From a virus (taxonomy: Duplodnaviria; Heunggongvirae; Uroviricota; Caudoviricetes): a stretch of DNA of 4,297 nucleotides. Made by a program: the position numbers and the translations under genes. The stretch spans positions 1 through 4,297 of the IMG/VR virus record IMGVR_UViG_2711768070_000013. One strand, given 5' to 3'. This document shows, in pieces, positions 1,874 to 2,625 of the stretch (the stretch's first letter is position 1; every line of letters begins with the position of its first letter). Below the pieces are notes generated by a model. It had not been told where the DNA came from and did not search any database. It saw nothing but the letters and a program-made list of their open reading frames with translations.

Positions 1874-2371
1874 ATGAAATCATTAACCCTCTTCAATCAA
1901 CCAATCCGTATCGGTGAAGATGGCATGATCTGCCTCACTGATATGTGGAAAGCCAGTGGTAAAAGTGAATCTGAATCTCCGTACCACTACCTGCGAAACA
2001 AGCAGACCAAAGAGTTCTTGGCTGAGCTGGAGAAAAACCACGAATCTGTGGTTTTTACGGAACGCGGTGCGCACGGTGGAACTTATGGCGGAAAGTTCGT
2101 TGCTTATGATTACGCAGCATGGCTAAACCCCGGATTTAAATATGCAGCCTATAAAGTCCTCGATGATTACTTCACCGGAGAGCTTCATCATCGGAACAGC
2201 TTAAGTGCGCAGCTCAACATGAAATGTCATGAGTTTGATCAGAAAAAAGACATGGCGAGCTTCTGTGGACAAGGCCTCGCGGCATGGCGCTACACGAAAC
2301 CTGGTTTGATCGCTGAAATTAACTCCCTGGCTAACCAGTTGCAGATTTCGATCCCCGGGCTTCCGGGATGA
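1874..2371 (+). CDS. KilA-N/APSES-type domain protein, 165 aa (accessory gene, function unknown)
   Basis: N-terminal half has KilA-N/APSES-like landmarks (GMICLTDMWKASGK..., then HGGTYGGKFVAYDYAAWLNP, compare GGYGKYQGTWVP of APSES domains); C-terminal 60 aa unassigned; AGGT 7 nt upstream of the ATG; stop overlaps the next ATG (ATGA at 2368-2371). Confidence 0.8.
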   Translation: MKSLTLFNQPIRIGEDGMICLTDMWKASGKSESESPYHYLRNKQTKEFLAELEKNHESVVFTERGAHGGTYGGKFVAYDYAAWLNPGFKYAAYKVLDDYFTGELHHRNSLSAQLNMKCHEFDQKKDMASFCGQGLAAWRYTKPGLIAEINSLANQLQISIPGLPG

Positions 2372-2625
2372 GTGATCGTGTCATTGAATGCGCCTCCAGA
2401 GCGGGGCGCGACTTCTCAGAGTTCATGAAAGGCGAGAAGGGTATGATGGAAGCATTGGCCTCGGTGGATGAGTTTGGCGAGCAGCTGCGCCTCAACGGCT
2501 GTGTCAATCATCACTTTGTTAGCTACATGATGCGGAACTCGATCATGCAGGCATTCATGGACATGGCAAAAGCCGAGAGGAAAGAAGAGCGCCGGCGTAA
2601 GCGAGCGGAAGCAAAAGCGAAGTAG
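2368..2625 (+). CDS. Small protein with strongly basic C-terminal tail, 85 aa, translationally coupled to the KilA-N gene
   Basis: ATGA start/stop overlap with the upstream gene; helix-prone acidic N-terminal part and tail KAERKEERRRKRAEAKAK; no family recognised by eye. Confidence 0.6.
   Translation: MSDRVIECASRAGRDFSEFMKGEKGMMEALASVDEFGEQLRLNGCVNHHFVSYMMRNSIMQAFMDMAKAERKEERRRKRAEAKAK

Follow-up and report, generated by a model that had tools for sequence, protein, structure and literature searches.

The two genes at positions 1874-2625 of a 4,297-nucleotide stretch of caudoviricete phage DNA (IMG/VR record IMGVR_UViG_2711768070_000013, positions 1 to 4,297; hereafter the window) probably form the cargo of a widespread, modular and tightly gated accessory cassette of temperate enterobacterial phages and specify a regulator of the Rha/antirepressor type, a reading to which we assign a probability of roughly 55%. 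The new component of the cassette is an RNA leader immediately 5' of the first gene, a previously undescribed and strongly conserved element that likely holds regulator-like proteins off until a cue is received; the KilA-N and ORF11CD3 domains, the Bro network to which they belong and the rha locus were already known. A search of the literature returned no account of either this protein pair or this leader.

Anatomy and boundaries of the cassette

The elements of the cassette are as follows:

1703..1727, + strand: intrinsic terminator, GAGCCTCGC-gat-GCGGGGCTT, then a T-run; 5' boundary of the cassette
1734..1758, + strand: small GC hairpin, ATGCGTaccgcaACGCAT, then a T-run; the second terminator of the first-pass annotation
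1760..1873, + strand: structured leader RNA of ~115 nt, from the MFE fold, a covariance model and covariation
1874..2371, + strand: CDS, 165 aa, KilA-N (residues 9-101) plus ORF11CD3 (residues 109-161), from Pfam
2368..2625, + strand: CDS, 85 aa, phrog_875, three predicted helices, the C-terminal one basic, from profile and AF2
2624..2665, + strand: 3' hairpin, 3' boundary of the cassette, overlapping the end of the stop codon by two bases

The two ORFs, 1874-2371 (165 aa) and 2368-2625 (85 aa), overlap in an ATGA at 2368-2371, exactly as the first-pass annotation had described, and this stop/start overlap suggests that their translation is coupled. That annotation also bracketed the pair with two tandem terminators upstream and a stem-loop downstream. 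The first upstream terminator stands: it folds at -14.6 kcal/mol (z -3.1) and is conserved across unrelated phages with compensatory changes, among them an exchanged C/G pair in the stem of Klebsiella phage RAH1. Of 78 distinct leader instances, 73 have a terminator-like hairpin with a T-run upstream, at a median distance of 36 nt. The second is doubtful: the GC hairpin at 1734-1751 with its TTTTTT, though flagged by the terminator scan, folds only weakly (-6.9 kcal/mol, z -1.6). A conserved small hairpin of the form GCG(C/T)...(A/G)CGC, usually lacking the U-tract, is present in 70 of the 78 upstream flanks, and the 1734-1751 element is the version of it seen in the window. The downstream stem-loop is strong (2624-2665, -27.2 kcal/mol, z -6.7) and has no clear U-tract; RAH1 (L009) has a predicted hairpin at the corresponding position, with another sequence (-23.7 kcal/mol, z -4.9). 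Across the window 12 terminator-like sites were detected, against 3.9 +/- 2.2 in shuffled sequences.

A conserved structured leader RNA precedes the gene pair

The interval 1760-1873 had been expected to hold a promoter. We found no promoter-like site on the + strand in this interval or in the larger region 1728-1873, and what occupies it is a conserved structured element. Its MFE fold (-49.3 kcal/mol, z -3.05) is a long imperfect hairpin, with an outer helix in which CCCUUUG pairs with the Shine-Dalgarno (SD) region (~1857-1866) and with a conserved 6-nt purine-rich bulge, GUGCGG, at 1836-1841. The outer helix joins 1772-1778 to 1857-1863, and a further helix pairs GCCUUUG with CAAAGGU. Additionally, the 5' flank CACCGA (1760-1765) can pair over a long range with the apical UCGGUG (1818-1823), which would form either a pseudoknot or an alternative conformer, the two being indistinguishable by sequence.

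A covariance model, R1, seeded with HK620-type leaders only, gave a sole match in the window, at 1760-1876 (+) with 50.9 bits (E ~7e-12), and recovered non-seed leader types with E-values from 1e-7 to 1e-15. Its hits end at an ATG in 86 of 86 cases, with an outer helix that pairs CUUU with AAAG(G). In the leader alignment (A6) paired cells amount to 92.2%, as against 79.8% after shuffling (0/500); 28 of 31 pairs vary on both sides, and slid controls give 34-52%. These statistics are inflated, many of the sequences being related and A6 having been fitted to the model. With MAFFT alone, in an alignment extended to the long-range helix, 87.5% of cells are paired versus 80.9% when shuffled (0/500), and 5 of the 6 long-range pairs vary on both sides. 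The long-range pairing is represented by 27 distinct complementary variants, and 96% of the sequences contain an uninterrupted complement of 6 nt or more, as against 20% when the flanks are shuffled. Even the sequence-divergent leader types keep the same helices by means of compensatory and G-U changes, and the abundance of G-U pairs, together with the far weaker scores of the reverse strand, points to an RNA on the + strand.

Compensatory structure, a fixed position 5' of the start codon and a ribosome-binding site (RBS) enclosed in a helix are the marks of a cis-regulatory leader, and all of them are seen here. The covariation, the 5' location, the RBS in a helix and the long-range pairing are shared with riboswitches and with the GEBRO motif, which occurs near Bro-N genes in Firmicutes and with which our leader also has in common its link to the Bro network. 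Unlike these described families, the leader has no Rfam match at E <= 1, either in the window or at 8 related loci. A search for IHF sites in the leader gave no convincing consensus; there is one one-mismatch site over the start codon, and the counts are near the chance maximum.

The genes downstream of the leader belong predominantly to the Bro network, a shuffled pool of domains that includes Bro-N, P22_AR_N, KilA-N, pRha, ANT, ORF11CD3 and P63C (PMC10111431). R1 leaders precede 52 distinct genes, 40 of which encode Bro-network proteins (KilA-N in 19, pRha in 17, T5orf172 in 3 and P22_AR_N in 1), and in many E. coli genomes the same leader lies 5' of genes annotated as 'Rha family transcriptional regulator'. 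We considered autoregulation of the leader by its cargo and rejected it, because the N-terminal domains of the cargo differ (KilA-N, pRha or phrog_875-like) while the leader stays constant.

Proposed gating of the cassette and the question of its own promoter

The combination of an upstream terminator with a leader that buries the SD argues for tight gating, for which read-through of antiterminated late transcription would be the simplest route. We propose that the terminator would admit only termination-resistant (Q-modified, late) RNA polymerase, and that the leader would block translation until its outer helix is opened by a cue, which could be a small molecule, a protein or processing by an RNase. 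Once made, the KilA-N protein would bind nucleic acid, its helical ORF11CD3 part serving for oligomerisation or docking, and the 85-aa protein would be its stoichiometric partner. Both proteins together could then form a regulator of the Rha/antirepressor type that acts on phage or host DNA, the most plausible setting being conflicts between co-resident lambdoid elements. A more ambitious form of this proposal, which we offer tentatively and with clearly less confidence, is that the leader represents a new class of pseudoknotted riboswitch-like RNA gating a swappable Bro-network slot in lambdoid and P22-like phages, that its cue releases harmful antirepressor/Rha-type regulators, and that the 85-aa protein is a new Bro-network domain in the form of a separate subunit. 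In this riboswitch-like form the cue would be of cellular or phage origin, candidates being a metabolite, a protein such as a nucleoid or RNA-binding factor, and RNase III.

The first-pass annotation had described the pair as an apparent independently expressed moron and as a candidate module for host modulation, anti-defence or superinfection exclusion. In such a scheme the prophage would transcribe it from a promoter insulated by the terminator, with the leader as a mere 5' UTR, and its products would exclude superinfecting phages or abort infection, as the KilA-N-like defence protein BstA does. Phage morons, as defined in HK97/HK022, are extra genes with their own promoter and terminator inside an operon, and the cassette is moron-like in being optional, in being bounded by hairpins and in occupying several insertion positions between conserved modules. 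Further, many leader subtypes are immediately preceded by an A/T-rich hexamer resembling a -10 box, which in four of them is a perfect TATAAT, so that some leaders may have a promoter of their own. However, neither the window nor the 78 upstream flanks contain a sigma-70 promoter above chance, the best -35/-10 scores over the flanks being barely higher than in shuffles (6.95 vs 6.67); the cassette, unlike a moron, starts with a terminator and a structured leader that sequesters the SD; and its base composition is not atypical, being the same as that of its flanks. The comparison with BstA points the same way. BstA is a protein of ~307 aa with an N-terminal KilA-N-type domain and a distinct C-terminal domain, is encoded beside the repressor locus and has an intragenic DNA immunity element (PMC8585504). 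The KilA-N protein of the window is likewise prophage-encoded with an N-terminal KilA-N-type domain, but it is only 165 aa long, ends in an ORF11CD3 tail and is encoded in a late-operon slot. In PADLOC it has a weak, KilA-N-level match to the candidate family PDC-S22 (1e-8, residues 60-90), which would agree with a role in defence, but it matches no named defence family, a QatB match at E 0.022 being regarded as noise. On this balance we consider an independently transcribed exclusion gene pair unlikely.

The KilA-N protein is related to P22 Rha by domain swapping

Pfam membership was accepted where the score exceeded the gathering score of the family. By this measure the 165-aa protein contains a KilA-N domain (PF04383, E 7e-16, 58.4 bits, cut-off 23.8, residues 9-101), in agreement with what the first-pass annotation had recognised, and an ORF11CD3 domain (PF10549, E 2e-12, 47.5 bits, cut-off 25, residues 109-161). 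The latter accounts for the C-terminal 60 aa, which had been taken to resemble nothing recognisable and are in fact a known Pfam domain. The protein is also matched by phrog_129, 'transcriptional regulator', at 1e-60, and is annotated elsewhere as a KilA-N domain-containing protein (O157:H7) or as kilA (phage 2851). Its AF2 model (pLDDT 80.9) has an N-terminal alpha/beta domain followed by long helices at residues 86-130 and 134-156. A PDB sequence search with the protein gave no significant match, and a PDB fold search with the model no significant relative, the best weak ones including the DNA-binding DdrC and Bqt4.

The closest parallel is rha of phage P22, which occupies the same slot as the pair, after gene 15/Rz1 and before terS, and is preceded by the same terminator and by an almost identical structured leader. 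P22 Rha combines pRha (2e-22) with ORF11CD3 (1e-27), and the C-terminal ORF11CD3 domain is common to both proteins, with 35% identity over 68 aa. They differ at the N-terminus, where Pfam finds no Phage_pRha domain (PF09669) in the window protein and KilA-N stands in its stead, and rha lacks a phrog_875 partner. By these correspondences the window protein is a Bro-network protein and a domain-swapped allele of P22 rha. P22 Rha, whose gene has a counterpart in phi80, reportedly inhibits phage growth in IHF-deficient hosts, an effect ascribed to work by Henthorn and Friedman in 1995.

The same domain pool furnishes P22 Ant of the immI region (mnt-arc-ant-sar) and other antirepressors, and homologues of phrog_875 close arc-ant-like (immI-like) operons at two loci, L098 and L102. 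RNA-level control is a feature of the P22 Ant region as well, where the antisense sar is annotated, whereas the window has a cis-acting folded leader within a late operon. Among named phage genes, hkbK/hkbL of HK620 belong to the two families of the window pair and are arranged alike, kilA of phage 2851 and its neighbour constitute the same cassette, and HK97 (gp73/HK97p61) shares the small gene and the type of leader. HK97 gp73 itself differs from the window protein in combining KilA-N with P63C over 242 aa, its KilA-N part being 24% identical. In the searchable literature we found no described function for hkbK/hkbL, HK97 gp73 or kilA of phage 2851.

The 85-aa protein belongs to a small family associated with Bro-network genes

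The 85-aa partner had been noted as unrecognised, and uncharacterised it is: it is matched over its whole length by phrog_875 (E 3e-54, residues 1-85 of 85), a family of unassigned function, and by nothing in Pfam, NCBIfam or PDB. Its AF2 model is of high confidence (pLDDT 93.8), with helices at residues 3-20, 26-42 and 48-84, and fold searches of this model against PDB and BFVD yielded nothing significant. The family is tiny and enterobacterial, with only 21 cluster representatives among 1.84 billion proteins, and a scan of GTDB genome contigs with the protein recovered only 3 loci, one of them on a mis-binned 'Nanosynbacter' contig.

In every locus examined the phrog_875 gene lies directly 3' of a Bro-network gene, usually with a stop/start overlap. 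These upstream neighbours encode KilA-N+ORF11CD3, KilA-N+P63C, pRha or pRha+ANT proteins and share no single common domain that could act as a docking surface. In three proteins (P0132, P0135 and L215) a phrog_875-like domain is fused to T5orf172, and there it takes the N-terminal slot that in other members of the set is held by KilA-N or pRha. The 85-aa protein might serve as a stoichiometric partner of the KilA-N protein. The stop/start overlap and the constant adjacency are likewise consistent with a complex of the two, and we found no natural full-length fusion of the two window proteins. The association is one-sided, as the phrog_875 partner is present at 16 of the 86 leader hits, P22 rha being among the leader-linked Bro genes that do without it. 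KilA-N+ORF11CD3 homologues at ~50% identity have small neighbour genes unrelated to the 85-aa family; those 3' of the Erwinia, Yersinia and Cronobacter homologues were compared with the family as possible members and did not belong to it. That most leader-linked Bro genes lack phrog_875 and that homologues have unrelated neighbours imply that the pair is not obligate.

These observations bear on whether the pair could be a kill/anti-kill module, akin to toxin-antitoxin systems, in which a toxic KilA-N protein is neutralised by the small protein translated with it. P1 KilA is lethal when expressed, and this, like the effect of P22 Rha, would suit such a module; so would the coupled translation suggested by the ATGA overlap, the two-layer gating, as expected for a harmful product, and the small gene being far more conserved than its upstream partner. 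We nevertheless judge it improbable, given that most Bro-network genes behind the same leader manage without the small gene, that homologues of the KilA-N protein have other neighbours, and that neither protein matches any toxin or antitoxin family in Pfam, NCBIfam or PADLOC. The position of the small domain as the N-terminal module of T5orf172 fusions also fits a functional domain better than an antidote.

Spread and modularity of the cassette

The first-pass annotation had proposed an accessory insert, and comparisons between phages bear this out: the pair is itself a mobile two-gene unit, distinct from the core machinery of the late operon. The window, HK97, HK620, mEp234 and Klebsiella RAH1 share homologous DNA from the terminator to just past the 3' hairpin. 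Within these homologous cassettes the small gene is nearly identical, while the upstream gene may be of either the ORF11CD3 or the P63C type. The cassette, from terminator to 3' hairpin, follows Rz in Stx phages, HK97, mEp234 and HK620, but it is found in the tail module of RAH1, between the major tail protein and the chaperones, and in that of an Enterobacter prophage (L101), between the tape measure and Dit. The co-occurrence of the two genes, on which the earlier proposal of a functional pair depended, is seen in 377 of 5426 complete E. coli genomes (~7%), besides many phages, and Shiga-toxin prophages of E. coli O157:H7 are among the carriers.

The swapping of genes behind a constant leader raises the possibility that the leader is no functional RNA at all but a DNA 'linker' for recombination, or a translated N-terminal extension as in the P22 and RefSeq annotations of Rha, and the pair ordinary late cargo. 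P22 and the window have near-identical leaders in front of different genes, as would be seen at a recombination junction, and annotated Rha CDSs do span the leader. We find this explanation hard to sustain. Divergent leader types retain their helices by compensatory and G-U changes, and the model scores far lower on the reverse strand. As for translation, the leader of the window is out of frame with the KilA-N gene, and the ATG that is aligned in all leader types forms the 3' end of the element; the Rha start codons annotated inside the leader are annotation errors.

The frequent location of the pair, or of its Bro-network equivalents, between lysis and terminase genes (Stx phages, HK97, HK620, P22, phiEt88 and Cronobacter prophages) might suggest a role in lysis or DNA packaging, for instance as an HNH/terminase accessory at cos in its usual place between Rz and terS, but this is very improbable, since the same cassette also resides in tail modules and immI-like arc-ant operons, accompanies both cos/HNH and pac-type packaging, and is far rarer in E. 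coli genomes than the modules that flank it.

Implications

Few accessory gene products of temperate phages are as common, and as poorly understood, as Bro-network proteins such as Ant, Rha, KilA and Bro. That dozens of their genes, P22 rha included, lie behind one terminator and leader unit points to a common layer of control, of which we found no earlier description. The conserved leader may also serve as a recombination handle, which would explain the ease with which the cargo is swapped. Why rha products harm phage growth in IHF-deficient hosts becomes a directly testable question. If repressors of co-resident prophages are targets of the cargo, the gate could affect how the many lambdoid prophages of EHEC induce one another and, through this, toxin release.

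Gene neighborhood and boundaries of the KilA-N gene pair

The window corresponds to the late region of a prophage of the lambdoid, Stx-phage-like type, with the two ORFs of interest lying between the Rz spanin gene and an AT-rich variable stretch:

534-740, class II holin
740-1237, endolysin
1222-1671, Rz spanin
1874-2371 and 2368-2625, the two ORFs of interest
3346-3531, minus strand, DUF3950/YlcI-YnfO family gene, just upstream of the HNH endonuclease gene
3573-3938, HNH endonuclease, followed by the start of the terminase region

Positions 1672-2700 match Stx1a prophages of E. 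coli O157:H7 at 100% identity, and there the ORFs are annotated as "KilA-N domain-containing protein" and "hypothetical protein"; in phage 2851 the first gene is named kilA. The two ORFs and their ATGA overlap are as the first-pass annotation described them, and its observation is real. Of the two tandem terminators it placed upstream, the first (1703-1727; -14.6 kcal/mol, z -3.1) is convincing as an intrinsic terminator, whereas the hairpin at 1734-1751 plus its T-run is weak (z -1.6). The stem-loop it noted downstream (2624-2665) is very stable (z -6.7), and no U-tract was found at this 3' hairpin.

A five-way DNA alignment revealed that homology begins at the terminator, the stem of which carries a compensatory C/G swap in Klebsiella phage RAH1, and stops just past the 3' hairpin. 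Across phages the small gene is almost identical and the gene upstream of it is replaced. Further, the cassette is found in tail modules: it separates the major tail gene from the tail chaperones in RAH1, and the tape measure gene from Dit in an Enterobacter prophage. These boundaries, the gene replacement and the tail-module positions support the earlier idea of a mobile accessory unit, and with it the reading of the pair as an accessory cassette; a rival reading takes the pair to be a packaging accessory.

The pair is conserved across prophages, as the whole 1-kb unit is present in 377 of 5426 complete E. coli genomes and the pair in many phages. The small gene occurs in 426 of these genomes and the KilA-N gene in 503 (395 near full length); 57 phage records hold the former as well, among them HK620 (hkbK/hkbL), HK97, HK022, mEp, Stx, Salmonella and Klebsiella phages. 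A KilA-N-type ORF lies directly 5' of an identical small protein in 80/80 IMG/VR loci, being truncated in one of them (L010), and it is also truncated in L003, a locus from the genome scan outside this set. In HK97 and mEp234 the partner is a KilA-N+P63C protein, and remoter homologues of the small protein close arc-ant-like operons, where they come after a pRha or pRha+ANT protein. KilA-N+ORF11CD3 homologues from Erwinia, Yersinia and Cronobacter phages (~50% identity) have unrelated small neighbors. The rule that survives is that phrog_875, the family of the small protein, always directly follows a Bro-network gene, and its start codon usually overlaps the stop codon of that gene.

Two side observations concern the distribution. 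In about 100 E. coli genomes (H178-H183) only positions 152-494 of the KilA-N gene are left, abutting the lysis gene; this is a recurrent cassette remnant truncated at its 5' end. Locus L003 (JARKOR010000234.1), a 4-kb contig in a Saccharibacteria bin ("Candidatus Nanosynbacter" MAG), is 99% identical to this Rz-kilA-small gene region of E. coli type and is almost certainly mis-binned enterobacterial phage DNA.

Domain architectures of the two proteins

Protein 1, the product of 1874-2371, combines a KilA-N domain (7e-16) with a following ORF11CD3 domain (2e-12) in Pfam, and its AF2 model (pLDDT 80.9) displays an N-terminal alpha/beta domain and then two long helices; fold and sequence searches recovered no significantly similar solved structure. 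The statement that its C-terminal part and the partner protein match nothing recognizable is thus half right: given the ORF11CD3 match, the C-terminal part is a known Pfam domain, one counted in the domain-shuffling "Bro network" of phage regulators (PMC10111431), while protein 2 (85 aa) matches phrog_875 alone. Both are new members of kinds already known.

Protein 2 is predicted with high confidence (AF2, pLDDT 93.8) to form three helices, the last long and basic, and fold and PDB searches found no structural relatives. Searching 1.84 billion representative proteins with a profile recovered just 21 phrog_875 clusters, essentially all from Enterobacterales. Among distant relatives, a ~60-residue phrog_875-like domain also forms the N-terminal module of the T5orf172/MUG113 proteins P0132 and P0135, and likewise of a 161-aa protein in locus L215. 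T5orf172 is associated with the Bro network in this data set: the fusion in L090 adjoins a KilA-N+P63C gene, and those in L091 and L215 are placed behind the same leader as the window pair. To our knowledge, the phrog_875 domain has not been described before as a Bro-network module. These fusions with T5orf172/MUG113 (GIY-YIG-like) occupy similar slots (L090 4001-5488, L091 4001-4540, L215 356-838). Separately, HK97p61 (L006 2501-2734) is shortened to 77 aa by an inserted base (ACATGGATG vs ACATGATG) that no other copy of the small gene has; this is either a genuine frameshift or a mistake in the old record.

A structured leader in place of the expected promoter

A promoter had been expected in 1760-1873. 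The interval is instead a covarying structured leader, and no sigma-70 promoter was detectable above chance ahead of it, either in the window or in the upstream flanks of other leaders; a perfect TATAAT adjoins the element in some subtypes. Here we also consider the rival reading of the pair as a defence moron expressed in the lysogen, like BstA. The leader folds into a long hairpin burying the Shine-Dalgarno sequence (-49.3 kcal/mol, z -3.05), and leaders of the HK97 and HK620 types take similar folds despite their differing sequences. Aligning 11 leaders locally brought out a shared architecture: an outer CUUU/AAAG(G) helix; a second helix, GAGCCUG/CAGGCUC, GCCUUUG/CAAAGGU or GAUAUGAG/CUCAUAUC depending on type; a third helix; an apical hairpin that is optional; a conserved purine-rich bulge; and a 5' flank pairing with the apical loop.

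A pattern scan of IMG/VR returned more than 120 stretches, 54 of them distinct true instances. A covariance model built from 47 leaders (45 HK620-type scan instances, L091 and L095) gives the window element a score of 50.9 bits (E about 7e-12), finds the leaders of P22, HK97, RAH1, phiEt88, L101 and L004 with E 1e-7 to 1e-15, and scores much more weakly on the reverse strand. With the caveats that the sequences are related and that one alignment is fitted to the model, in the fitted alignment of 76 distinct sequences 92.2% of cells are paired against 79.8 +/- 0.4 in shuffled controls (0/500), and 28 of 31 pairs change on both sides; slid controls give 34-52%. A MAFFT-only alignment that includes the long-range helix gives 87.5% against 80.9% (0/500), with both-side changes in 5 of the 6 long-range pairs. 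These figures are to be set beside the rival reading of the leader as a non-functional recombination linker.

The long-range pairing occurs in 27 distinct complementary versions (e.g. CGAGAG/CUCUCG, CCCGAG/CUCGGG, CCAAGAGC/GCUCUUGG, CCUGGAG/CUCCGGG and GAAAGU/GCUUUC), and a contiguous complement of at least 6 nt is found in 96% of sequences against 20% with shuffled flanks. For the window, the possible pairing is CACCGA (1760-1765) with UCGGUG (1818-1823); a scripted complement search gave another 6-nt match, CCUGCC/GGUGGG, for this leader type. Judged by sequence, the pairing could be a pseudoknot or an alternative conformer. The frequent G-U pairs point to the leader acting as RNA, on the plus strand. 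It matches no Rfam family and, as far as we know, has not been described before.

Cargo of the leader and proposed control

Every covariance-model match ends at an ATG. The 52 distinct downstream proteins include 40 of the Bro network (KilA-N 19, pRha 17, T5orf172/MUG113 3, P22_AR_N 1), the remainder being unassigned or membrane proteins. Among 78 distinct upstream flanks, 73 contain an intrinsic-terminator-like hairpin with a T-run, whose end is a median of 36 nt from the leader, and 70 of the 78 contain the small GC hairpin. The leader links the pair to P22 rha and many other Bro-network genes, and terminator, Shine-Dalgarno-burying leader, Bro-network gene and, in a subset, phrog_875 form a conserved unit that moves between phage contexts.

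In P22, a close relative of HK620, rha sits in the exact slot of hkbK/hkbL and is preceded by DNA almost identical to window 1760-1873; P22 Rha is pRha+ORF11CD3 (1e-27), whereas protein 1 is KilA-N+ORF11CD3. By the shared slot, ORF11CD3 and near-identical leader, protein 1 is a domain-swapped allele of rha. In P22 (NC_002371 39575-39646) the annotated GTG start of rha (39575, 201 aa) falls within the leader; the ATG at 39644 (178 aa) is the one that aligns with the window start and with every other leader instance. CDSs named "Rha family transcriptional regulator" in many E. coli genomes (RefSeq, H196-H203) similarly overlap the leader. These starts are probably mis-called, as they lie inside the leader, upstream of the ATG common to the other instances.

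We propose that the terminator would exclude ordinary RNA polymerase, so that the cargo would be transcribed mainly by the Q-modified late polymerase, and that the leader would hold translation off until a cue acts. The proteins of the pair would form a DNA-binding, Rha/antirepressor-like regulator; a rival reading makes them a kill/anti-kill pair. P22 Ant, P22 Rha and P1 KilA are harmful when mis-expressed, and by analogy such two-layer restraint would fit products of this sort.

In several phage contigs a second, divergent leader copy precedes another gene (L210 341-441, L160 11112-11223, L104 8528-8625, L130 3245-3342, L048 472-592), and therefore one phage could gate more than one cargo slot with this element.

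Other features of the window

Window 1-530 has no match in most of the closest Stx-phage records, and a strong terminator-like hairpin (453-479 plus T-run) lies shortly 5' of the holin gene; the genes directly upstream of holin in phage 2851 and in the O157:H7 locus L001 are DUF1378 and DUF826. The AT-rich stretch 2850-3345 (37-39% GC) is absent from most of the closest Stx-phage matches and present in other E. coli prophages. Within it, ORF 3058-3216 (plus strand), preceded by a promoter-like site at 2958-2986, encodes a very hydrophobic 52-aa peptide (46 aa from ATG) that matches no family and may represent a moron coding for a small membrane or toxic peptide. The DUF3950/YlcI-YnfO gene is kept at the same position in Stx phages. 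Past the HNH gene and ahead of the region for the terminase small subunit, 4029-4158 contains a cluster of GTTAAC-centred repeats and palindromes (e.g. GCCAGTTAACA/TGTTAACTGGC and three copies of AAATGTTAAC), possibly terminase or cos recognition sites.
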